Part shown: one piece after another, positions 1-60,131 of the stretch
How the letters are laid out: each line of letters opens with the position of its first letter
Position numbering within the stretch: position 1 is the stretch's first letter
Assembly: GCA_964520425.1 (NCBI GenBank)
Contig: CAZFMX010000004.1
Span: forward strand, 7,526-71,525
Length of the DNA: 64,000 bases
Direction of reading: 5' to 3'
DNA from: an uncultured Desulfobacteraceae bacterium
Lineage (GTDB): Bacteria; Desulfobacterota; DSM-4660; Desulfatiglandales; HGW-15
The notes under the pieces: model-generated
The model's input: the letters and a program-made list of their open reading frames with translations, nothing else
The model's database searches: none
Told to the model about the DNA's origin: nothing
Position numbers and translations under genes: made by a program

Positions 1-985
1 CTTCCAGGGCGGAAAGATCAGGTGTTTGACCGATGGCCGGAATGACCTGGTCGAGTTCCATATCAAATTCACTCCCAGGTATGGGGACCGGCCTTCTTCT
101 ACCCGACGAGTCGGGCTCCCCAAGTTCCATGCGAATACACCGCAGACCAATCACCCTGTCGTCCTGGAGGAGGACTTCCTGGGGGGCTGAGAGAAAGGAG
201 ATCTTCACCCCTTCCTCCTCTGCGGCCTCGACTTCTTCCTCCCAGGCCGGCATCTCCGCGCGAGTCCTTCGGTAGATGATAGTGACTTCTTCGGCCCCTA
301 GCCGGACTGCGGAGCGGGACGCGTCGATGGCCACATTACCGCCGCCGACGATAGCCACTCTTCTTCCCACAGCCGCCTTACCCTTAAGGTTCAGTTCTCT
401 AAGAAAATCCACACCCTGTCGTACACCCTCAGCCTCATCACCGGGGATACCCATCTCAATCCCTCTATGGGCCCCAGTAGCCAGATATATGGCCTTGTAG
501 CCTTGATTCAATAGGGTTTTGACCGTCAAATTCGGGCCCAGGGGCGTGTCGGTCCTGATCTCCACACCCAGGTTGGTGATGACCTCGATCTCCCGATCCA
601 GAATGTCTCGAGGAAGACGATGCTCAGGGATGCCCACCCGCAGCATGCCGCCGGCTTTGGGCAGGGCCTCAAAAATCGTGGATAAGACCCCTTTCCGTGC
701 TAGATGATAGGCCGCGGAAAGCCCCGCAGGGCCCGAGCCGATGATAGCCACCTTCTCCTCCCTTGGAGGGAGACATTCAATCTCTATTTCCCGGGGATCA
801 AACTGGTCGGCTGCAAGGCGTTTCAGGTCCCGAATGGCTATCGGATCATCCACATCACACCGACGGCAGGCATCTTCACATCCATGGGGACAGATTCTGC
901 CGAGCACACCGGGCAGGGGGAGATCTTGCATAATGATTTTCAGGGCCTCTTTGTATTTCCCCTGTCCCACCATCTGTACATACCC
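1..985. repeat. Copy 1 of a >=985-bp perfectly identical segment shared by the two hdrA paralogs
   Basis: It is identical to 11397-12381, and the first mismatch is at 986 vs 12382. The antisense ORF-track translations 33..275, 276..500 and 519..707 are identical to 11429..11671, 11672..11896 and 11915..12103. Confidence 0.9.
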
Positions 986-2723: not shown

Positions 2724-4211
2724 TTAGGGGCTTTTCCCATCTTCCCTTATAACCGGTAGCAATATTCTAAAAGTAGTTCCTTTATCAGGAACGCTTTCCA
2801 CGTCAATCGTACCATTATGACTTTCTACCACACCTTTTACTATGGTGAGTCCCAATCCTGTACCTGTCACATTACGAGTCTTTTTGTTTTTTATACGGTA
2901 AAACTTGTCAAAGATCTTAGGGAGTTCTTCCGGGTCAATGCCTACTCCCGTGTCACTTACTTTGATTTCCATATATTCCCCCAGGACCTGGGCATTCACT
3001 TCGACCCGACCCCCTTCAGGAGAATAATTGATGGCATTGGTGACAAGGTTATTGAGGATCTCTTCAATTCCTTTGGGATCCGCATGAACGGGCTTCATGT
3101 TCTTGCAGGAGTCAATAAGGGTAATTCCCTGCTTCTGGGCCCTGGGCTTCAACAGAGAGAGGGTATCCTTGATGAGTGATTCGATATCCGTAGGCACTCG
3201 ATGTTGTACCTGTTTTCCCTCTTCAAGCTTCGCGATGTCCAAAAGATCATTGATCAGCTCAAGGAGTTGGTCTATTTTCTTTACTCCCTTTCCTAGGAAT
3301 TCCTCCTGCTTTTCCCCAAGAGGACCGAGTAACCCCTCTAGAAGGACAGTGTTTTGTTGCCTGATGGAAATCAATGGACTTCGGAGTTCGTGGGCTACCA
3401 TATTTATAAAATCTGATTTCATCTCGTCGAGTTGTCTAAAGGCGGTGATATCCTGCAAGACCGTGACTGTCCCGACGAGCCCATCATCGGGGCCGAGGGC
3501 TGGTGCCGAAATGGCCCTCAGGACCATTTTCCCGGCGCTGATTTCCTGGGACACGAACTCATCTCTTGCAGATTCACCGGTCTGGATACCCTCAAGTGTA
3601 TTTCTCAGAGCCCTGTCATCTATAATCTGATTCACTAATACGGGATTTTCGACCTTTCCCGATATCTCCAGCAGCCTCATCAATGCGGGATTGTGAAGGA
3701 CAACTTCCAGGTTGCGGTTAGTGACCATTACACCATCAGCCATACAGTTGATTATGGTCTTCAGCCGGCTTTTTTCCAGGTCGAGATCATAGAGGTTTCT
3801 CAATTTCTCCTCTTCATATGAGTGGGCTCTCTTTTCAAGCGCCCTCTTTTCGGCAGCCCGATTGATGGTTAAGAGAAACTGATCGATCTGGAAAGGCTTG
3901 GTTATAAAGTCATAAGCGCCCTGCTTCATACAATCCACGGCGGTATCCACGGTTCCATGTCCCGTGATAATGATGACCGGGATGTCCGGATATTGAACGC
4001 GCGTTTTTTCCAGGACCTCCTCGCCACTCATGACAGGCATTTTCAGGTCGAGCAGGATAACATCTACGGTCTCTTTGTTCAGCAGATCCACAGCCTTTTG
4101 TCCGTTTTCAGCGGTCAAGACCTCATATCCCTTTCCCGTTAACACACGGCTGCATCCCTCCCTAACAACCTGCTCGTCATCTACAACCAATATCTTTGTT
4201 TTATGATCCAT
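2724..4211 (-). CDS. Hybrid response-regulator receiver / PAS / histidine kinase
   Basis: It has an N-terminal receiver (ILVVDDEQVVRE...LLDLKMP), an H-box MVAHELRSPL, and HATPase_c boxes (NAINYSPEGG, DTGVGI, GTGLGLTIVKG). Confidence 0.85.
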   Translation of the reverse strand: MDHKTKILVVDDEQVVREGCSRVLTGKGYEVLTAENGQKAVDLLNKETVDVILLDLKMPVMSGEEVLEKTRVQYPDIPVIIITGHGTVDTAVDCMKQGAYDFITKPFQIDQFLLTINRAAEKRALEKRAHSYEEEKLRNLYDLDLEKSRLKTIINCMADGVMVTNRNLEVVLHNPALMRLLEISGKVENPVLVNQIIDDRALRNTLEGIQTGESARDEFVSQEISAGKMVLRAISAPALGPDDGLVGTVTVLQDITAFRQLDEMKSDFINMVAHELRSPLISIRQQNTVLLEGLLGPLGEKQEEFLGKGVKKIDQLLELINDLLDIAKLEEGKQVQHRVPTDIESLIKDTLSLLKPRAQKQGITLIDSCKNMKPVHADPKGIEEILNNLVTNAINYSPEGGRVEVNAQVLGEYMEIKVSDTGVGIDPEELPKIFDKFYRIKNKKTRNVTGTGLGLTIVKGVVESHNGTIDVESVPDKGTTFRILLPVIREDGKSP

Positions 4212-8463: not shown

Positions 8464-11400
8464 CTACATGCTCGTTCCTTCGGCCAGTGTATCTATCATG
8501 GCCAATATTTGCCCGTCTTTGAAGTTATTGACCTGAAATGCCTTGGCCGGACAGACACCCGCACAGATTCCACATCCCATGCATTTGACCTCGTTGTGGC
8601 TTACCTTGCCCTCTTCGTCGATATAGGGTGAATCAAAGGGACAAACTCTGAAGCATGTGAGACAGGACATGCAGATATCCCGGTTGTGCTTGGAAATAAT
8701 CCCGGATACGGCCAGTTTGTCCTGAGACAGGATGACACCGGCGCGACCGGCAGCGGCTAGGGCCTGGGAAATAGTTTCATCCAGATTCTTGGGGGCATGG
8801 GCCAGTCCGCACAGGAAGATACCCTCGGACGGAAAGTCTACGGGACGAAGTTTGACGTGGGCCTCCAGCAGGTAGCCCTCCGGATTGCGCGTCAGTTTGT
8901 AAATCTTGGCGACCTCTTCTGTCGTTGGGTGCGGTCTGAGGCCCGTGGAAAGCACCAGCCAGTCCGCTTCAAACTCGACTTCTCGGCCGAGCATATCATC
9001 GAAGGTCTTGACCCGAAGATTGTCTTCTGAAACCTCCACCTGAGGTTTCCTTTCCGGGATATAGTTTACAAAGATCACGCCCAAATCGCGCGCCTTAAAG
9101 TAGTAGTCTTCCCTGAGCCCGTATGTCCTGATGTCACGATAGAGGATGATGACCTGTGTATCAGGCGAGTGTTCTTTGATGGCGATAGCGTTCTTTATAG
9201 CGTCCTGACAGCAAATACGGGAGCAGTAATTATCAGGCTCCTCTCTGGAACCCACACACTGGATCATGACATATTTTTCGCCCGCTTGAACGCCATGATT
9301 GGCTGCAAGCCTCTTCTCCAGCATTCGCTGGGTGATCACCCTGTCGTTCTCCCCGTAAAGGTATTCCTTGGACTCATATTCGGTACCGCCAATGGCCACG
9401 ATAATAGCCCCATGCTCGAACGATGTTCCGTCAGTCAGGGTTGTCTTGAAGTTGCCCACAAAACCATCAGTGGATTTGACCTCAAGCCCCGTGTGAATGG
9501 TGATGCGCGGGTGGGCCTGGATCTCTTCGATTTTGGTCTTTAAAAAACCCTGCACATCGCTTTTATCCAGTGTATGAAAAAGATTGCGAGCCAGACCGCC
9601 CAGGTCAATCTCCTTTTCCACCAGGTGGACATCAAAACCCTGATCACCCAGTGAAAGGGCCGCGGTGATGCCGGCTACTCCGCCGCCAATGACCATGGCC
9701 CCGGGAATCACGCCCACCGAGTCGGTGGTGACCGGCTCCAGCAGCCTGACCTTGGCTATATTCATTTTAACAATGCTGATGGCCTTTTCTGTGGCATCTT
9801 CATTCTGTCCCATGTGACACCAGGAGCATTGCTCGCGGATATCGGCAAGCTCGAACAAATACTTGTTCAGTCCGGCTTCACGGATAGTGTCCTGGAACAG
9901 GGGCTCGTGGGTTCTTGGTGTGCAAGAAGCCACCAAGACCCTGTTCAAATTTTTCTCCTTGACGATCTCCTTTATTCGCTCTTGTGTGTTCTGTGCGCAG
10001 GCGTACATTGTATTTTCAGCATGTATAACGCCCTGTTCACCTTTCACAGATTCGACCACCTTTTCCACATCTACGGTCTGGCTGATATTGATTCCGCAGT
10101 GACAGACGAATACCCCGATTCTGGGCTCTTCTTTGGTGATGTCTGTTTCCGGCGGGAGTTCTCTGGTCACCGTCTCTGTGCCCCTGGCCTCACCCAGCAA
10201 AGCCATAGCCTCTCCCGCTACAGCGCTTCCCTGCATCACGGTCTCGGGTATGTCCTTGGGGGATTGGAATATACCCGTGACAAACACACCATCTTGAGAG
10301 GTATTAACCGGCTGAAATTGGGTTGTTCTGGGAAAGCGGTGGTCATTGAGCGCAATATCAAAGGTCTTGGCCAAATCATCCACGTCCGAGTGGGGCTGAA
10401 AGCCGATGGAGAGGACGACCATGTCAAAGGTTTCGTCCACCAGGGTTCCATCCTCTTTAGCATAGCGCAGCACCAGGTTACCTGTTCCGGGTTCTTCCCT
10501 TATTGCCGAGATCATGGCCCGTTGATACCGGACGCTGTAGTCGTTCTTGGCACGATCCACATACTTGTCAAAGTCCTTTCCAAAGGCTCTCAGCTCCATA
10601 AAGAAAATGGTGGGATGAATTCGGCTATCATGTTCGGTGGCAATAATGGCCTGCTTGGTGGCATACATACAACAGACCGAAGAACACCAGGGATTGGCAT
10701 TGTGTCGGTCCCGGGATCCTACACATTGAATCCACGCGATTTTTTCAGGATGCTTTCCGTCGCTGGGGCGCTTGACCGTTCCCTGGTACGGGCCGGACGC
10801 GGAAAGGATGCGCTCAAACTGAATGGACGACACCACGTTGGGCCAACGGCCAAACCCCAGTTCCTGTCGGACGCCGGCGTCATAGCGGGCGAGACCTGGG
10901 GACAGAATAATGGACCCCACATTGATTTCCATGGTCTCGGGTTGCTGCGCGTGGGTCTCCAGTGTTACCGCTCCAGGAAGACAGGCCTCCACGCACTGAA
11001 AACACTCGCAGCAATATGAACAATTCAAACACCGATGGGCCTCTGTCTGACCGGTCTCTATATCCAGACCCAGCTCCACTTCCTTGAAGTTTCCTTCTCG
11101 CTTTTCAACAGGCAACTCCGGCATTTTGGCTCGATCCTTCTTGTGTTGGCCTTTTGGAATAGGACGGTAGACCGGATCCTCTTTGGTGATGGGTTCCCGT
11201 CCCTCGGCCATGTCCCGTCCGTCCAAATAACGGACAATGGATTCGGCTGCCTCCCGGCCTGAGGCAACGGCACCAATGGCCACCCATGGACCGGTCTGCA
11301 CATCTCCACCCGCAAAAACACCGTCGCAGTTGGTGGCATAGGTGATGGAATCCGTTTCAACCGTACCCCACCGAGAGAATTCCAGACCGGATATCTCTTC

Positions 11401-12912
11401 CAGGGCGGAAAGATCAGGTGTTTGACCGATGGCCGGAATGACCTGGTCGAGTTCCATATCAAATTCACTCCCAGGTATGGGGACCGGCCTTCTTCTACCC
11501 GACGAGTCGGGCTCCCCAAGTTCCATGCGAATACACCGCAGACCAATCACCCTGTCGTCCTGGAGGAGGACTTCCTGGGGGGCTGAGAGAAAGGAGATCT
11601 TCACCCCTTCCTCCTCTGCGGCCTCGACTTCTTCCTCCCAGGCCGGCATCTCCGCGCGAGTCCTTCGGTAGATGATAGTGACTTCTTCGGCCCCTAGCCG
11701 GACTGCGGAGCGGGACGCGTCGATGGCCACATTACCGCCGCCGACGATAGCCACTCTTCTTCCCACAGCCGCCTTACCCTTAAGGTTCAGTTCTCTAAGA
11801 AAATCCACACCCTGTCGTACACCCTCAGCCTCATCACCGGGGATACCCATCTCAATCCCTCTATGGGCCCCAGTAGCCAGATATATGGCCTTGTAGCCTT
11901 GATTCAATAGGGTTTTGACCGTCAAATTCGGGCCCAGGGGCGTGTCGGTCCTGATCTCCACACCCAGGTTGGTGATGACCTCGATCTCCCGATCCAGAAT
12001 GTCTCGAGGAAGACGATGCTCAGGGATGCCCACCCGCAGCATGCCGCCGGCTTTGGGCAGGGCCTCAAAAATCGTGGATAAGACCCCTTTCCGTGCTAGA
12101 TGATAGGCCGCGGAAAGCCCCGCAGGGCCCGAGCCGATGATAGCCACCTTCTCCTCCCTTGGAGGGAGACATTCAATCTCTATTTCCCGGGGATCAAACT
12201 GGTCGGCTGCAAGGCGTTTCAGGTCCCGAATGGCTATCGGATCATCCACATCACACCGACGGCAGGCATCTTCACATCCATGGGGACAGATTCTGCCGAG
12301 CACACCGGGCAGGGGGAGATCTTGCATAATGATTTTCAGGGCCTCTTTGTATTTCCCCTGTCCCACCATCTGTACATACCCCTGTACATTCAATCCCGCG
12401 GGGCAGGCCAAACGGCAGGGGGCTTTGTCCATCTTTCGGATGGCATAGGCGCTCGGAATGGCTTGGGCATATTCTTTGTAGGTTGCTCTTCTGGTGGAAA
12501 GACCTTGCTCGTATTCATTGGGGAGTTCTACAGGGCAGACCCTCGCACAATCGCCACAGGCCGTACACTTTGCCTCATCAATGTAACGAGGATTCTTGCG
12601 GATGGTGACTCTGAAATTCCCTTTGGGACCCTCAACCTTCTCCACTTCTGCGCAGGTGATCAGGTCTATATTGAGATGCCGGCCGACCTCCACCATCTTG
12701 GGTGAGATCATACACATGGCACAGTCGCCAGTGGGAAAGGTCTTATCCAACATGGCCATGGTCCCGCCTATGCTTGAATCTTTCTGGACTATATGTACCT
12801 TGAAGCCGGCTTCAGCAAGGTCGAACGCGGACTGCATGCCACCCACACCGCCGCCTACGATCAGGACCGATCCTTTTACTCTATTACCATTTGAGGAGGC
12901 ACTATCACTCAT
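8464..12912 (-). CDS. hdrA: Giant HdrA-like flavoprotein: HdrA module + inserted GltD/NfnB-like NAD(P)H module + second HdrA module + ferredoxin domains (1482 aa)
   Basis: Motifs in order are VLIVGGGVGGMQ; DCAMCMISPKM; GltD-type [22 protein letters not shown]; [13 protein letters not shown] and [15 protein letters not shown]; CVGSRD...CSSVCCMYATKQA; a second MVIGGGVAGITAAL and CVGSREEPDNYCSRICCQDA; and the C-terminal CMSCLTCFRVCP/CMGCGICAGVCP. Confidence 0.9.
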   Translation of the reverse strand: MSDSASSNGNRVKGSVLIVGGGVGGMQSAFDLAEAGFKVHIVQKDSSIGGTMAMLDKTFPTGDCAMCMISPKMVEVGRHLNIDLITCAEVEKVEGPKGNFRVTIRKNPRYIDEAKCTACGDCARVCPVELPNEYEQGLSTRRATYKEYAQAIPSAYAIRKMDKAPCRLACPAGLNVQGYVQMVGQGKYKEALKIIMQDLPLPGVLGRICPHGCEDACRRCDVDDPIAIRDLKRLAADQFDPREIEIECLPPREEKVAIIGSGPAGLSAAYHLARKGVLSTIFEALPKAGGMLRVGIPEHRLPRDILDREIEVITNLGVEIRTDTPLGPNLTVKTLLNQGYKAIYLATGAHRGIEMGIPGDEAEGVRQGVDFLRELNLKGKAAVGRRVAIVGGGNVAIDASRSAVRLGAEEVTIIYRRTRAEMPAWEEEVEAAEEEGVKISFLSAPQEVLLQDDRVIGLRCIRMELGEPDSSGRRRPVPIPGSEFDMELDQVIPAIGQTPDLSALEEISGLEFSRWGTVETDSITYATNCDGVFAGGDVQTGPWVAIGAVASGREAAESIVRYLDGRDMAEGREPITKEDPVYRPIPKGQHKKDRAKMPELPVEKREGNFKEVELGLDIETGQTEAHRCLNCSYCCECFQCVEACLPGAVTLETHAQQPETMEINVGSIILSPGLARYDAGVRQELGFGRWPNVVSSIQFERILSASGPYQGTVKRPSDGKHPEKIAWIQCVGSRDRHNANPWCSSVCCMYATKQAIIATEHDSRIHPTIFFMELRAFGKDFDKYVDRAKNDYSVRYQRAMISAIREEPGTGNLVLRYAKEDGTLVDETFDMVVLSIGFQPHSDVDDLAKTFDIALNDHRFPRTTQFQPVNTSQDGVFVTGIFQSPKDIPETVMQGSAVAGEAMALLGEARGTETVTRELPPETDITKEEPRIGVFVCHCGINISQTVDVEKVVESVKGEQGVIHAENTMYACAQNTQERIKEIVKEKNLNRVLVASCTPRTHEPLFQDTIREAGLNKYLFELADIREQCSWCHMGQNEDATEKAISIVKMNIAKVRLLEPVTTDSVGVIPGAMVIGGGVAGITAALSLGDQGFDVHLVEKEIDLGGLARNLFHTLDKSDVQGFLKTKIEEIQAHPRITIHTGLEVKSTDGFVGNFKTTLTDGTSFEHGAIIVAIGGTEYESKEYLYGENDRVITQRMLEKRLAANHGVQAGEKYVMIQCVGSREEPDNYCSRICCQDAIKNAIAIKEHSPDTQVIILYRDIRTYGLREDYYFKARDLGVIFVNYIPERKPQVEVSEDNLRVKTFDDMLGREVEFEADWLVLSTGLRPHPTTEEVAKIYKLTRNPEGYLLEAHVKLRPVDFPSEGIFLCGLAHAPKNLDETISQALAAAGRAGVILSQDKLAVSGIISKHNRDICMSCLTCFRVCPFDSPYIDEEGKVSHNEVKCMGCGICAGVCPAKAFQVNNFKDGQILAMIDTLAEGTSM
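11397..12381. repeat. Copy 2 of the >=985-bp perfectly identical segment (inside hdrA, GltD-like insertion)
   Basis: See 1..985. It covers about aa 178-506 of the 1482-aa protein. Confidence 0.9.
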
Positions 12913-18308: not shown

Positions 18309-18764
18309 TCCAATCCAGTGAGTTTTCCTCTACCAAAAATGCCTTTCTGATTATCTTCCTTTGACAGCTATTAGACGACCCACCCTATAGGACCTTTCTT
18401 TCAGAGATGTGTCGACAACATTTCTGAACGCCTTCCGACATTTGCTCGAGATACCGGCACATGGTTCATGAGATGCCTTTGGAGTGAAAATCATCCTTAT
18501 TAAAGAGGTCGTTAGGGGAAGTAAAGCTGAAGTCTCACATAAGGGTATGCTAGAGGCAGGATGTTAAGTACGGCCAAACCCGATCAACATATTGTGTCTT
18601 TGTCAGGATGATATTCTATATTTTGGTTAATTGGTGACTCTTTGTTAAATTGTGATAATAATATTGACAATTATGCATATATTGTAGTATTTTAGGTATA
18701 ACTTATTTGATTGAGACCCTTGCCCCCTCTATGAAACAGGGTTCAATAGCTCCACGACCATGAT

Positions 18765-19076: not shown

Positions 19077-19250
19077 ACTCACCAAGAAAAGATGTCTCTT
19101 GCACATCCAAGTCCTCCTCTCTTTTTAAAATCCTGCCCTGATTTGATTACCGCTATGTTGCGGAATCCTTAAAAACCGATTTATCCGATTAATGAGTAAG
19201 TGAACATGTGAAGTTACACCTTAGTTGAACAGCGAGTGAATGGTGATGAA

Positions 19251-19415
19251 ATCTTTTCGTATGTTCCGAGTCTCCCGGCCTGGTCATTTCAAACAGTTAT
19301 GGACGGGTGATGCCTCCCCCCTCCGCTGTTCCCCTCGACTTCGCTCGGGGCCAGGGGTCCCCCATTCCATATCTGTTTGAAATAAGGTGGCCTCCCGACA
19401 GTCACCCCGAAAAGA
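19251..19415. repeat. Family-A structured intergenic element, divergent copy A3
   Basis: It shares the blocks GTTCCGAGNCTCCCG, CCCCCTCCGCTGTTC, CCAGGGNTCCCCCA, CAGTCAC and GAAAAG with 21111-21300 and 59890-60070. Its stems differ in sequence but stay complementary. Confidence 0.7.
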
Positions 19416-19585
19416 CTTCCTCACCATTTTTTCGTGTTCGAGGATATCACATAATTCGTACTTATTAATCGGATGAGATCGTATCACATTCCTCCTCCTT
19501 GACTTTTGGCACTGGAGACATATGATACCGACAAAACCGCCGGACCGGTTTCTTCTCTGAGTAATCCAAGGGATAGGGTGAACGG

Positions 19586-21073: not shown

Positions 21074-21110
21074 TCCAGATGCATTTGGAATGGAGTATTG
21101 CTCGAGGGAC

Positions 21111-21300
21111 ACAGGCTATTCTTTCGTTCCGAGGCTCCCGTGCTGGTCTTTTCTGAGACTTATCTGCGAGGGAAACTTGCCCCCTCCGCTGTTCTTCCCG
21201 CCTCTTCGAGGCGGAAAGCCAGGGCTTCCCCCACAGATAAGTCTCGAAAAGACGGCGCTCTCCCACCAGTCACTTCAGAAAAGCCTCTGTCACTCAAGCC
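21111..21300. repeat. Family-A structured intergenic element, copy A1 (about 190 nt, long imperfect hairpin)
   Basis: It is about 85-90% identical by eye to 59890-60070. It has nested inverted repeats: an outer ACAGGCTATTCT/AGAAAAGCCTCTGT stem, an inner GTCTTTTCTGAGACTTATCTG/CAGATAAGTCTCGAAAAGAC stem, and an apical CTTCCCGCCTC-TTC-GAGGCGGAAAG hairpin. Confidence 0.8.
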
Positions 21301-21380
21301 ACTCTTTCGGGGTTTTCTGAGCTCTCATGCTCTGGGTGAGGAACCTCATTGATCAATGATAATTGGTTGTTGGCTTTGGG

Positions 21381-32794: not shown

Positions 32795-32963
32795 AAACGG
32801 CCTTTTTGGCCAATCTTCCGCCGTCGCTACAGCTATGGCGGGACAGGCTGCGTCACCCTTTAGATTGTAATCCTCGAAATACTCTATTGTATTGATGCCC
32901 GTCCCGATGTCAATCGGGAGGGTTTCAATCTTCGCCTTCCTTGACCTTGACCAAAAATTCTCG
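32795..32963. repeat. Family-B structured element, copy B1 (just upstream of the sugar-transferase start)
   Basis: It is homologous to 35733-35866. The outer stem is 32863-32874/32919-32930, enclosing hairpins at 32878-32893 and 32903-32918, followed by CTTCGCCTTCCTTGACCTTGACC. Confidence 0.7.
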
Positions 32964-33045: not shown

Positions 33046-34128
33046 TCAAACAGCTTCCTTCACGAGACGAAAACCAATGAAATCACTCTTTGATTGAGGC
33101 GACCAGTATAACCTTGCTGCTGATCGACAGTTCTTTGCGTTGGCAAACCATGACCCACCACGTATCACGCGGCCGGGCCCTGGCCATGACATAAGAGGGT
33201 CTATGCTCTTTTCAGAAGAATAAGGCCTAAACCAGTCCTGACACCATTCAAAGACGTTGCCGTGCATGTCATACAGGCCCCACTCATTGGCATTCTTTAA
33301 GGCCACGGGATGCGTTCGGCGATTCGCGTTTCCACAGTACCAGCCTACAGCATCAAGACTAAGGTCGTGGCCGCAGAAAAGCTCCATGATCATTCCTTCG
33401 GGAGAAGACTCCATAGAACCTGCACGGCAGGCATATTCCCACTCAGCCTCCGTAGGGAGACGATAAACGGCTTGAGTCGTGCGGTTAAGGGTTTTGATGA
33501 AGTCCAGACAGTCATGCCATGTGACATTTTCCACAGGACATTCATCGCCTCCTTCAGTGATGAACTTCGAAGGGTTGGTTCCCATTACAGATTTCCATTG
33601 GGTTTGCGTAACAGGTGTTTTTTGCATATAGAAACCCTTGGTTAAGGTGACTTCATGCAGCACTTCTCCATTGTCTCGTCCCACTTCATATTCGGCGCTG
33701 CCCATGAGAAACGCACCGGGATGAATAGAGACAAAGGCATTTTCAAATAGAGATGCCGAATCCTCTGAACGTGCTTCTTCAAAGGCCGGTTCTTCTCTCG
33801 CTTCTATGGTCGAAATGGAATCCGGTGAATCTTCGACTTCCGATTTTGAGACCTTTATAATATCAGGTGGCAAAGGCTCTGTGACGGGCGAATCAGCCGG
33901 AATGATGTTTGCCTCGAAAGGAAAAGGTTCTACCTCTTCCTGCTCTGAGACCTTTAAAATCCCAGGTGGCGAAGGCTCTCTGACGGGTGAATCAGCCGGT
34001 ATGGTGCTTACCTCAACAGGAGCAGGTTCAGCCTCTTCCGTGGTCTGAACGGATTTCAGGTCCATTTCCCTTAATGCCGAAAAGACCGGAGACTGCCTTT
34101 TTTTGCCCTTTCTCAATATTCGGATCAT
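33046..34128 (-). CDS. Formylglycine-generating-enzyme (SUMF1/EgtB/PvdO) family domain protein with repeated Pro/Glu-rich N-terminal linker
   Basis: C-terminal FGE-sulfatase motifs: FLMGS...HEVTLTKGFYMQKTPVTQTQW..., YRLPTEAEWEYACRAG, GLYDMHGNVFEWCQDW, RGGSW. Confidence 0.8.
   Translation of the reverse strand: MIRILRKGKKRQSPVFSALREMDLKSVQTTEEAEPAPVEVSTIPADSPVREPSPPGILKVSEQEEVEPFPFEANIIPADSPVTEPLPPDIIKVSKSEVEDSPDSISTIEAREEPAFEEARSEDSASLFENAFVSIHPGAFLMGSAEYEVGRDNGEVLHEVTLTKGFYMQKTPVTQTQWKSVMGTNPSKFITEGGDECPVENVTWHDCLDFIKTLNRTTQAVYRLPTEAEWEYACRAGSMESSPEGMIMELFCGHDLSLDAVGWYCGNANRRTHPVALKNANEWGLYDMHGNVFEWCQDWFRPYSSEKSIDPLMSWPGPGRVIRGGSWFANAKNCRSAARLYWSPQSKSDFIGFRLVKEAV
33848..34045 (-). repeat. 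2 x 99-nt tandem repeat inside the FGE-domain gene (33-aa units)
   Basis: The units start at 33848 and 33947 and encode ...IPADSPV(R/T)EP(S/L)PP(G/D)I(L/I)KVS.... Confidence 0.75.
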
Positions 34129-34143
34129 AAATTTGCTTTCACT

Positions 34144-35664
34144 CTATGGCCTGTCATATACTGACTTAGGTTCGATATTCTTTTCACTCCCACCCGCAGA
34201 AAGATCCTCGGTTTTGATATCGGGCACAACAGGTTCGTTATTCTCCGAGGTTGCGTCGTTATCCTGGTCGATTATCGGCAGCCTCAAGACCTGACCCGCC
34301 CAAACTACATCTTGGTCCGTGATCTCCGGATTGGCCTTAAGGATGATTTTCATGGCCGAATAACGGTTCCTTCCATAATACCGGTCTGCCAATCTCAAAA
34401 TATGCTCTCCGTATTCTACGACAATCTCTTGATATTTCGTTTCCTCCTTCACTTCTTCGGAATCAAGTGATGAGGATATCTCAGAAACAGATTCTTCTTT
34501 TGGGATGTCTTTTCGAGTTTTAGAGGAAGAGTCTACATCAGCAATCTTTGGAGAATGCCCCGATTCCTTGAGAGTGTCCTCCTCACTTTCCATGGATCGC
34601 GGCTCGATTTCTTCAATGACTTTCGTTTCCATTTCCATTGGCCCAGGTTCTGGCAGAAGAGCATTAGATGGAGTTTTAGTCTCGACGGGAGATGGAGGTT
34701 CTGTTTGGGCGGTCTTTTCCGTGAAGAATTTGAAATACATCTTAATGCCCATATAGTTCAAAATAACGATACATGTAATGATGACAAATATAGATACGAG
34801 AGGATTCAAAAACTTTATAGATCTATATGTTTGGGCTTTTGAAGCCTTTGGCGTAAGAAGGATATCGCTTCGTAGCGTTTCGTATGCTTTATTCAGGATT
34901 TTCTTGTTGATCCTGGCCCGTCCTTCGGTTTTGCAGACCAAAAGGGCGTTATCGCAAACTAGGTTAATGAGGCGGGGGACTCCGTTTGTCAGGCTATAAA
35001 TCAAGCCTTTGCAACTTGGTTCGAAAATGAGATCAAAGCTGGATCTCACAACCTTTAGCCTAAAGTCGATGTATCGGATAGTTTCCGAAGGATCCAGAGG
35101 GGATAAAAACCGGCTGATATTGATGCGTTGACGAAGCTGGCGCATTTCAGGGCGCTCCAACTTGTGACTCAGCTCATATTGGCCGACTAACAGAATTTGA
35201 AGGAGTTTCTGAGAGGTCTCAATATTGGAAAGCAATCGTATATGTTCGAGATTCTCATCAGACAACAGATGCGCTTCATCTATGATGAGAACATGTTTTT
35301 GTCCCTGGGCCCTTGTTTTCACCAAAACTTCTTTGATTTCACCCGCGAGCGCTAAAGAGCCTTTTGAATGATCCTCTATGCCGAGATACCCTGCAACGAA
35401 GAGCAGGATTTCGTGATACTCGAATTGGGGATTCGATATCATCATCGGAATCACGGATGAAGGCAGCTTCTCAAGAAAGCTGTGTACGAGCATGGTTTTC
35501 CCGGTTCCGACATCACCGCAGAGGAGTGCAAAAGTCTTGTCTTCTTGAATAAAATAGAAAAGGGCTGAAAGGACTTCTTCATGATCTTGACTAAGGAAAA
35601 GGAAACGCTGATCCAGATTGTTTTCAAAAGGTGAATCCGAAAAGCCGAAGTGGGCGTTAAGCAT
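34144..35664 (-). CDS. ExeA/GspA/MshM-type AAA ATPase with TM segment and C-terminal LysM-like domain
   Basis: It has FGFSDSPFENNLDQRFLFLSQDHEE..., Walker A GDVGTGKT and Walker B LIIDEAH. The C-terminus IVVEYGEHILRLADRYYG...GQVLRLP is LysM-like. Confidence 0.8.
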   Translation of the reverse strand: MLNAHFGFSDSPFENNLDQRFLFLSQDHEEVLSALFYFIQEDKTFALLCGDVGTGKTMLVHSFLEKLPSSVIPMMISNPQFEYHEILLFVAGYLGIEDHSKGSLALAGEIKEVLVKTRAQGQKHVLIIDEAHLLSDENLEHIRLLSNIETSQKLLQILLVGQYELSHKLERPEMRQLRQRINISRFLSPLDPSETIRYIDFRLKVVRSSFDLIFEPSCKGLIYSLTNGVPRLINLVCDNALLVCKTEGRARINKKILNKAYETLRSDILLTPKASKAQTYRSIKFLNPLVSIFVIITCIVILNYMGIKMYFKFFTEKTAQTEPPSPVETKTPSNALLPEPGPMEMETKVIEEIEPRSMESEEDTLKESGHSPKIADVDSSSKTRKDIPKEESVSEISSSLDSEEVKEETKYQEIVVEYGEHILRLADRYYGRNRYSAMKIILKANPEITDQDVVWAGQVLRLPIIDQDNDATSENNEPVVPDIKTEDLSAGGSEKNIEPKSVYDRP

Positions 35665-35732: not shown

Positions 35733-35866
35733 AAACGCCCCTTTTGCCCAATCTCGGCGTTAGGCTCAAATTCTAATCCTCGAAATACTACGAGTATTCC
35801 TGGCTATCCCGATGAAAATCGGGAGGGTTAGAATTCTCGCCTTCCTTGACCTTGAACAAAATCGAG
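35733..35866. repeat. Family-B structured element, copy B2 (upstream of the ExeA-like gene start)
   Basis: The outer stem is 35769-35780/35824-35835, enclosing hairpins at 35784-35798 and 35808-35823. The stems covary with B1. Confidence 0.7.
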
Positions 35867-37490: not shown

Positions 37491-38243
37491 CTACTTGTCT
37501 TCAATTTTGTATCCGTTTTGGTACTTTTCCTCCAGAATCAAAGAGCCGGCCTCGGAAAAAGTCTTTTTCATGCCGTGAAGTTTTCCATCTTTATAGTACA
37601 CCTGTTCCTTCAACTGGCCGTTTTTATAAAAGTATTTACCCTCACCGTTCAGAGCACCATCTTTATATGTCAGGATCTCGCATTCAACACCCGATTGATA
37701 GTATTTCTTGTAGAGGCCGTCCAGCTTTCCACTCTTATAGTTTGCCTTGGACCAGCCGCTTTCAAAAAATTCAGTGGCGGGACCTTCCTTTTCCCCATCT
37801 ACATAGGTCCATTCAGCCCTCGTGTCTCCATTTTCATAATAGTCCCAGGCCAGGCCTTCTTTCATCCCATTCCTGTAGTTCACCTTTGCCTTGACAACAC
37901 CATTCTCGAAAAATTCCTGAGCCAGACCTTTTTCCTTTCCATCCTTGAAATTCGTCTCAGCCTTGATCTTGCCGTTTTCAAAGTATTCCTGAGCCAGGCC
38001 TTCTTTCTTTCCCAACTGGTAACTCACCTTTGCTTTAAGCATGCCGTTTTCAAAGTATTCCTGAGCCAGGCCTTCCTTTATCCCGTTTCTATACGGGATT
38101 TCTTCCTTTAGCTGCCCGCTGGGATAATATGACTTTTCAACCGTTATCAAAGGAGACTCTCGTCCGGCTTTTTTCGAATCCGCTGCGGTACACCCCAGGA
38201 CGAAAAGTAGGAGAAAAATGCTGATTTTTTTTATCGTTTTCAT
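37491..38243 (-). CDS. MORN/YwqK-repeat lipoprotein
   Basis: It has a signal/lipobox LLFVLGC and repeated units G(L/P)AxE(Y/F)(F/Y)ENG.... ATG 38243 is preferred over the ORF-track start at 38297. Confidence 0.75.
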   Translation of the reverse strand: MKTIKKISIFLLLFVLGCTAADSKKAGRESPLITVEKSYYPSGQLKEEIPYRNGIKEGLAQEYFENGMLKAKVSYQLGKKEGLAQEYFENGKIKAETNFKDGKEKGLAQEFFENGVVKAKVNYRNGMKEGLAWDYYENGDTRAEWTYVDGEKEGPATEFFESGWSKANYKSGKLDGLYKKYYQSGVECEILTYKDGALNGEGKYFYKNGQLKEQVYYKDGKLHGMKKTFSEAGSLILEEKYQNGYKIEDK

Positions 38244-59686: not shown

Positions 59687-59889
59687 GTCGGCGACAATAC
59701 GACGAAGGGGCGCCCCCCTCCCAGTAAATCTGTCATTAAAACCAATGGTAAATGAAGAGGTGAATCCGGTATATGTTTTGCTATTAGTTGTGATCTAAAT
59801 CCACCGCCTCTGGCGGTGGACCCGGAAAGGTTCTACCGTTCCGGCGAGAAACGAATGGTTTCTTAGTACAAGGAGATAAGCTCAAAGGG

Positions 59890-60070
59890 CAGAGGCTTTT
59901 CTTCCGTTCCGAGGCTCCCGGTCTGGTCTTTTCAATGACTTATCTGCGAGGGAAACTTGCCCCCTCCGCTGTTCTTCCCGTCTCTTTGAGACGGGAAGCC
60001 AGGGCTTCCCCCACAGATAAGTCACGAAAAGAAGGCGTCCTCCCGCCAGTCACAACAGAAAAGCCTCTAT
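59890..60070. repeat. Family-A structured intergenic element, copy A2
   Basis: See A1. It has a perfect apical hairpin CTTCCCGTCTC-TTT-GAGACGGGAAG and an outer stem AGAGGCTTTTCT/AGAAAAGCCTCT. It is followed (60076-60122) by two extra GC hairpins abutting the fbp stop. Confidence 0.8.
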
Positions 60071-60131
60071 CCTTTGAGCCCCCTTCGAGGGGGCTGCTTG
60101 AGGCTTTCCGCTATGCGGAAAGAGTACTCAC

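Follow-up and report, generated by a model that had tools for sequence, protein, structure and literature searches.

Copy A3 of a dispersed repeat lies in intergenic DNA of the 64,000-nt window, the whole stretch of DNA analysed here, which also carries copies A1 and A2. A1 and A2 each occupy the gap between two convergent genes, A2 directly adjoining a stop codon. The 165 bases at 19251-19415, within A3, had been flagged in an earlier note on this DNA, and all of the blocks quoted there are present where they were placed. The proposal that A3 has the same architecture as A1 and A2 was borne out: conserved blocks are common to all three copies and the stems differ by compensated changes. When A1 (about 21113-21292), A2 (about 59893-60072) and A3 were aligned, mean column identity was 81%, and the conserved blocks alternated with divergent complementary arms. 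The GTTCCGAGTCTCCCGG block gave three window matches at up to 3 mismatches (19263, 21126 and 59906) compared to 0.37 expected, a count reached by none of 100 shuffles. A partial match at 18698-18729, considered as a fourth window copy, was a chance match.

The inner stem of A3, TTTCAAACAGTTATGGA / TCCATATCTGTTTGAAA, pairs with a single T.T mismatch, and the A1 and A2 arms differ from it yet are also complementary. The stems had been called completely different. In the inner stem, seven pairs are indeed changed on both sides, but about half of the positions are identical, and the outer stem, said to be replaced, keeps CTTTTC/GAAAAG in every copy. The block CCAGGGGTCCCCCA, listed as kept, is conserved but only with an indel, A1 and A2 having CCAGGGCTTCCCCCA. 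The extent of the element was underestimated: the hairpin runs outward beyond the flagged bases to 23-bp terminal inverted repeats (TIRs), giving an element of 302 bp (Table 1). The only open reading frames inside it are mechanical ones of 53 and 67 aa that run through the hairpin. Comparison with Rfam, which the earlier note had proposed, yielded no matching family: release 15 at the gathering threshold gave 0 matches over the whole window, and a permissive search around A3 and A2 gave chance-level matches only (E = 0.4-10). A tRNA or tmRNA origin of the element was looked for and none was found.

Table 1 Window coordinates of A3, its parts and the two other copies.
Feature	Position	Strand	Basis or remark
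Whole A3 element, 302-bp MITE of the TIR-1 family	19178..19479	+ (orientation of the earlier note; structured strand is minus)	TIR-1 ends, relatives, empty sites
Left TIR GATTTATCCGATTAATGAGTAAG (family consensus GGTTCATCCGGTTAATGAGTACG)	19178..19200	+	
Right TIR, plus-strand letters CGTACTTATTAATCGGATGAGAT	19457..19479	-	
Structured core, a rod (helices P1-P7) whose internal loops are rich in purines	19250..19423	-	Covariance model R1, 169 bits, E = 7e-43
Outer stem P1, 5' arm AATGGTGATGAAATCTTTTCG	19239..19259	+	Longer than TCTTTTCG of the earlier note
Outer stem P1, 3' arm CGAAAAGACTTCCTCACCATT	19408..19428	+	
Inner stem P4, 5' arm ATTTCAAACAGTTATGGA	19286..19303	+	
Inner stem P4, 3' arm TCCATATCTGTTTGAAAT	19366..19383	+	One T.T mismatch
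Apical hairpin P7 CCCCTCGACTTCGCTCGGGG	19331..19350	+	In relatives, site of variable length and insertions
Copy A1, core	21113..21292	-	Covariance model, 157 bits
Copy A1 as insertion relative to syntenic locus L135	21083..21376	+	
Copy A2, core	59893..60072	-	Covariance model, 158 bits
Copy A2, extended unit (approximate limits)	59801..60131	+	Upstream hairpins CCACCGCCTCTGGCGGTGG and CCGGAAAGGTTCTACCGTTCCGG, core, downstream hairpin GCCCCCTTCGAGGGGGC

Transposon anatomy and relatives of A3

Bacterial MITEs are defined as small elements with TIRs and target site duplications (TSDs) that can fold into a long stem-loop (PMC3184786). A3 has this anatomy: it is below about 400 bp, lacks a transposase gene, carries TIRs and belongs to a dispersed family whose copies are present at some loci and absent from others. 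In A3, two matches to the TIR-1 consensus, at 19180(+) and 19457(-), carry 3 mismatches apiece. The termini of A3-type copies read GGTTCATCCGGTTAATGAGTACG ... CGTACTCATTAACCGGATGAACC, relatives of 307-313 bp have the same ends, and TIR-1 pairs 290-330 bp apart around the core were found in about 50 distinct elements. With all offsets and lengths tested, direct repeats just outside the TIR-1 ends appeared only at offset 2, as repeats of 8 bp; these TSDs were exact in 18 of 50 distinct pairs, had at most one mismatch in 30/50 and, where exact, were 76% AT compared to a background of 52%. A3 itself has no TSD (TAAAAACC versus CGTATCAC). About 44 nt common to the syntenic loci L135 and L137 are missing from the window beside A3, and we infer that loss of this adjoining DNA explains the absent duplication. 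A second terminal repeat, TIR-2 (GGCTCCTCATAAGAATTTGTGGG), bounds elements of about 375 bp that have the same core, with exact 8-bp TSDs in three of four (L043, L052 and L079). A3 is a MITE, and the structured module that it carries, which covaries and is specific to one strand, is common to two TIR types.

Syntenic loci showed gain and loss of copies among close relatives. In L135, where TraB is 92% identical, there is no A3 and no A1, and the convergent TraB and 6PF2K genes lie 13 bp apart. In the intergenic region of A3, L136 (TraB identity 88%) carries another copy, longer and offset by about 20 nt, and L137 (83%) has no A3; in both, the A1 site holds an internally deleted remnant (L136:5161-5308 and L137:3823-3938, orthologous to window 21083-21376). 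Further copies lie between the 6PF2K and M48 peptidase genes in L136 and L137, and none lies there in the window or L135. The deletion break in L136 coincides with a direct repeat, TTTTCTGAG, that occurs twice in the intact copy, and L137 keeps only the outer stem. The empty A1 site between TraB and 6PF2K (L135:5150-5190) is itself a small palindrome, TAATCCAG ATC CTGGATTA, and insertion of A1 may have targeted a terminator-like hairpin. For the A1/A2 subtype, exact ends and a target duplication could not be defined; the hairpins that flank A2 were also found in L005, L071 and L136.

A two-block pattern search gave 14 matches at 13 loci in five Desulfobacteraceae/Deltaproteobacteria MAGs, several of them at contig ends. 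Sediment metagenomes, searched with another pattern that made no use of the 5' and 3' blocks, added at least 120 loci and gave more than 100 distinct copies. These copies sit in intergenic regions and vary in the inner and outer stems (of many kinds, always complementary), in the length of the apical hairpin and in the presence of optional GC-rich hairpins; the near-invariance of CCTCCGCTGTT, CAGGG and CCCCCA among them is partly owed to the pattern-based collection of copies. The GC-rich hairpins sit at a few fixed loop positions of the core (e.g. GCCCGCC...GGCGGGC and GGGGACCCACCCCGAAGGGGTGGGGTC in L029, L055, L086, L103, L095, L136:3215-3280 and 3385-3440, and L013) and could represent expansion segments, or small palindromes nested there as inserts. 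Two copies, L110:93-267 and L116:1089-1270, are chimeric: their outer stem and flanking sequence belong to the A1/A2 subtype and their inner stem to the A3 subtype, which points to recombination or conversion between subfamilies. Judged from the copies at contig ends, the repeat family probably breaks assemblies of its host genomes. Literature searches found no description of this MITE family, which is abundant in marine sulfate-reducing bacteria and so far undescribed.

The ends and the core also occur in other arrangements. Copies of the commonest core subtype (outer stem GGGCTGTCCCTTTTC) continue into a repeated module of about 170 nt, CCAAAAGAATCCCACCCAAGG...GCAAACCCTTGAAAATAAG, with an inner inverted repeat AGATGTCGTCTTGAAAAGAA (L014, L040:3094-3816, L076:11191-11877, L091:130-969 and about 35 others). 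Composite units of 687-840 bp, made of this core subtype and other modules, have TIR-1 ends and exact TSDs. Another MITE family of about 330 bp also has GGTTCATCCGGTTAATGAGTACG ends and 8-bp TSDs (L078:2680-3014, L078:4285-4615, L018:3108-3429, L062:9836-10167, L083:11718-12047 and L106:10455-10789); its cargo is different, strongly folded (GGCCCATGGGG...GGCGGGCGGG...CCGCCCGCC...CCCCATGGGCC) and points either way with respect to the ends. At L047:2353 and L124:3221 a terminal repeat, TTCATCCGGTTAATGAACACA, stands alone between gspF and a gspG-like type II secretion pseudopilin gene, close upstream of the latter, and is either a remnant or reused sequence.

No cognate autonomous element or transposase with these TIRs was found in the window or in 886 kb of loci. 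Among the 40 window ORFs there was no transposase, integrase, RAYT/Y1, reverse transcriptase or other recombinase/replicase domain, and searches of plasmid and viral collections gave no useful match. Genes beside solo or odd terminal repeats were considered as transposase candidates and were gspF/gspG, cmk, hisC and other housekeeping genes; no gene family recurred near the copies, and no split cores flanking an ORF were found. Families with TSDs of about 8 bp and ends of the GGTTC... or GGCTC... type (ISL3, IS6, IS66 and IS256) would be candidate partners. The earlier note had held that a match to an established REP/MITE family that has its own transposase would speak against selection on structure. 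The MITE anatomy is present in the form of TIRs, 8-bp TSDs in relatives and empty sites, but the family matches none already described, and the searches above turned up no transposase. MITE identity does not remove the case for structural selection, as the core is strand-specific and the TIRs and arms are not.

Fold and covariation of the core

The predicted fold of A3 was more stable than that of shuffled sequences on both strands, at -65.4 kcal/mol on the plus strand (z = -4.3) and -78.1 on the minus strand (z = -5.5). RNAalifold applied to the three window copies gave 14-15 pairs changed on both sides, with -59.4 for the plus strand and -82.8 for the minus strand. For the wider family we built a covariance model, R1, from 28 diverse copies with a structure of 55 pairs that was written by hand, because MAFFT alone misaligned the variable stems and RNAalifold then dropped them. 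A scan of the window with this model, as the earlier note had suggested, matched the three copies and nothing else, each on the minus strand (E = 7e-43 to 1e-39; scores in Table 1).

Covariation was measured in 100 copies aligned to the model, 93 of them distinct. Canonical pairs made up 95.1% of the cells over the 55 pairs and 93 distinct copies. Double changes were seen in 32 of the 55 pairs and amounted to 555 cells, compared to 170 +/- 13 in column shuffles, none of 500 of which reached that number. When the 3' partners were slid by 1-3 columns as a control, pairing fell to 38-57%. These results strongly uphold the view that secondary structure was selected, as opposed to a repeat in decay.

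On the minus strand the core is a rod. From the outside in, the outer stem P1 gives way to a GUGAC/GGAAC motif, which may contain a tandem G.A. Then come a helix of 3 bp, a 4x4 loop of purines (GGGA/GGGA, with GGAA/GAGA as the form in some subfamilies), a GGCC helix of 4 bp, P4 (a stem of 21 bp and variable sequence) and UGGGGGA/UCACCCG; at the apex of the modelled fold, CCCCU/GGGGG faces an 11-nt bulge, GAACAGCGGAG, and leads to the apical hairpin P7. The blocks had been described as single-stranded, which is right only in part: the family consensus pairs GGCC/GGCC, GTC/GAC, CCCCU/GGGGG and UGGGGGA/UCACCCG within them. Two divergent copies (L063 8881-9020 and L118 6738-6898) have CCGCA...UGCGG in place of CCCUG...CAGCGG, a replacement which suggests an alternative helix that uses the 11-nt 'bulge' (CCCUG/CAGCGG as opposed to CCCCU/GGGGG). 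How little this region varies among the other copies also owes something to the search patterns.

Strand specificity of the core

A G.U pair on one strand is an A.C mismatch when read on the other. Among the aligned pairs, G.U cells numbered 469 and A.C cells 44, which places the fold on the minus strand; with G.U-majority pairs left out, the counts were 243 and 44. Two G.U pairs are almost invariant (91/93 and 90/93 copies). An alignment-free test gave a similar picture: 102 of 103 copies fold more stably on the minus strand, internal G.U pairs numbered 330 versus 144, and 1x1 A.C mismatches 38 versus 185. The excess was steeper among 27 cluster consensuses obtained by clustering at 10% distance (131 G.U versus 9 A.C) than among private departures from the Watson-Crick consensus (53 versus 33). 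Selection was therefore strongest in lineages that keep propagating, single inserted copies showing a much weaker strand bias, and the lineage-level G.U excess, far above the private one, suggests that the fold matters to element lineages. As a control, the TIRs and arms of the same elements were symmetric (24 versus 16 in the TIRs; 80 and 91 in TIRs plus arms). This symmetry places the asymmetry in the core; neither the mutation process nor the entire palindrome would account for it.

With the strand assigned, the earlier description of the loops as anti-Shine-Dalgarno-like or Shine-Dalgarno/GGA-like according to strand is narrowed to its second half: the exposed motifs are purine-rich (GGGA, GGAGG) and not CUCCC. 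A strict Shine-Dalgarno mimic is doubtful, since the motifs vary to GGAA/GAGA in some subfamilies.

The same contrast bears on whether the core is simply the middle of a palindrome, with no function, whose halves are kept complementary by concerted evolution through intramolecular repair or conversion in the hairpin. The entire 300-bp element, arms included, can form one long hairpin, a behaviour that is classic for MITEs (PMC3184786). Under concerted evolution the two strands should be alike, yet the core has the 469 to 44 imbalance and the arms and TIRs have none. The conserved loop motifs on the two arms are direct and not inverted repeats, and the same core occurs in elements with two unrelated TIRs and different arms. 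Singleton variants occurred in the core at roughly half their frequency in arms plus TIRs (our own count, partly biased by the way copies were collected). The core-versus-arm contrast thus disfavours a purely palindromic by-product, which we consider very improbable. Taken together, the covarying stems, the G.U pairs confined to one strand, the conservation of the loops above that of the TIRs and the presence of the module in MITEs with two TIRs demonstrate selection on the fold.

RNA cannot be told from single-stranded DNA by the strand test, because folded single-stranded DNA also tolerates G.T mismatches. The core may act in the latter form, one strand folding back during transposition or replication and being seen by the transposase or a host protein, in the manner of integron attC sites, IS200/IS605 ends and the ssoA origins of rolling-circle plasmids. 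In attC and ssoA sites the stems covary, a few unpaired bases are conserved and one strand is functional; the A3 core likewise has covarying stems, conserved unpaired bases and one favoured strand. A sigma-70-like promoter was looked for on either side of the core and no conserved site was found, nor was a terminator, there being no T-run. Orientation toward flanking genes is random (47 versus 45 upstream, 46 versus 44 downstream), so that only about half of the copies would be transcribed in the structured sense. These absences, together with selection that is strong in propagating lineages (131 versus 9) and weak in private changes (53 versus 33), as expected if the fold serves mobility, make folded single-stranded DNA a serious rival.

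TIRs with a fixed-length TSD are, among IS families, a sign of double-strand DDE-type transposition, and the 8-bp TSDs of this family point to such a mechanism. The lack of strand asymmetry in the TIRs and arms argues against selection of the whole element as a fold-back, and copies within one contig occur in both orientations. Almost invariant G.U pairs at helix ends and a tandem G.A would be more typical of RNA. With the purine loops added, these features lead us to regard RNA as likelier, and action as single-stranded DNA as unlikely. attC sites also differ in other respects: they are 57-141 bp long and lie in cassette arrays beside an integrase, whereas A3 shows no GTTRRRY/RYYYAAC boxes at the base of the stem and its copies are not arrayed. 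Unlike attC and ssoA sites, A3-type copies are transposon cargo with TIRs and TSDs.

Possible roles of the core and comparison with known systems

We favour the reading, to which we give a probability of roughly 0.65, that A3 belongs to an undescribed MITE family moved in trans whose cargo is a selected strand-specific rod, acting most likely as minus-sense RNA. The mobilising transposase, which the element does not encode, would act in trans and would make 8-bp staggered cuts in AT-rich intergenic DNA, leaving the duplications seen in relatives. The cargo, about 180 nt long, would be read from the complement of the window plus strand and would form a seven-helix rod with the purine-rich loops GUGAC/GGAAC, GGGA/GGGA and GAACAGCGGAG. 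Read-through from whichever neighbour points that way could produce a minus-sense transcript that folds into the rod, and a protein might then bind or process the rod RNA to the benefit of the element's persistence or spread.

The beneficiary could instead be the host, with MITEs spreading a useful RNA that acts in trans as a decoy for an RNA-binding protein or in cis as a stabiliser, insulator or terminator for neighbouring genes. Private substitutions in the core were rarer at paired sites (0.036) than at unpaired sites (0.062), which, with the lower singleton frequency in the core than in the arms, suggests per-copy constraint. The core holds about seven GGA triplets in loops that are purine- and GGA-rich, and the positions of A1 and A2 between convergent genes, with A2 at a stop codon, would suit a role of this kind. 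The random orientation to neighbours, the ready loss or internal deletion of copies in close relatives, the absence of a T-run terminator, the variation of the loops from GGGA to GGAA/GAGA and the lack of any recurrent partner gene near the copies all count against it, and we regard a host-useful RNA as quite improbable. More speculatively, the core could represent a new class of structured RNA or folded single-stranded DNA that MITEs must carry to be propagated, either as a cofactor or recognition module for the enzyme or as a decoy for a restraining host protein. We hold this idea only tentatively; it would explain why two TIR families have the same module, why the loops are conserved above the ends and why selection is seen at the level of lineages.

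Returning to the preferred reading of a MITE with a structured RNA cargo, the family resembles described bacterial MITEs (Correia/NEMIS of Neisseria, ERIC and RUP) in being small, ORF-free and intergenic, with TIRs, TSDs and a long stem-loop, although a cognate autonomous IS with the same TIRs was not found for it. It differs in that no sequence relation to described families was found and in having an interior that is conserved above the TIRs, is strand-specific and occurs in two TIR types. It is not a member of the REP/BIME/REPIN group, which are palindromes of 20-40 nt with a GTAG/CGTC tag, a RAYT and no TSD, whereas A3 is about 300 bp with TIRs and 8-bp TSDs. Closest in spirit is bcr1 of the Bacillus cereus group, a mobile non-autonomous repeat of about 155 bp with 5-bp direct repeats and a two-hairpin cruciform-like fold, which is known to be transcribed and in which compensatory changes keep a structure interpreted at the RNA level (PMC3184786). 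The A3 family is also non-autonomous, with a short TSD and compensatory changes, but is about 300 bp, has 8-bp TSDs and a single seven-helix rod, and comes from a different host phylum.

Structured non-coding modules inside mobile elements are also represented by the IS110 bridge RNA and the IS200/IS605 omega RNA, and the A3 core is likewise such a module. Bridge and omega RNAs lie beside the gene for their recombinase or nuclease, and in them the guide loops vary and the stems are conserved; in the A3 family, by contrast, the loops are conserved, the stems are variable and no recombinase or nuclease gene is nearby. Like structured non-coding RNAs in general, the A3 core shows significant covariation that favours one strand.

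The interiors of MITEs are usually assumed to be unconstrained, their hairpin arising as a side effect of the inverted ends, and the A3 family differs in this respect. It offers a testable case of functional structured cargo in bacterial non-autonomous transposons, in uncultured and abundant marine-sediment sulfate reducers, and the covariance model could be used to mask or annotate the family in genomes.

Other repeats were seen in the window. An exact 985-bp direct duplication (window 1-985 and 11397-12381) has its first copy beginning at the window edge and its second inside a 1482-aa flavin/FeS oxidoreductase ORF (8464-12912, minus), with similarity fading by about 1.3 kb. A 68-nt direct repeat, 82% identical (32889-32956 and 35794-35861) and containing CCCGATG.AATCGGGAGGG and CCTTGACCTTGA, lies in two intergenic regions that each flank a minus-strand ORF (33046-34128; 34144-35664) and may be a shared regulatory region. 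Coding tandem repeats of 72 nt x3 (37813-38074) and 99 nt x2 (33830-34027) lie in a MORN-repeat ORF and an FGE-sulfatase-domain ORF, respectively.
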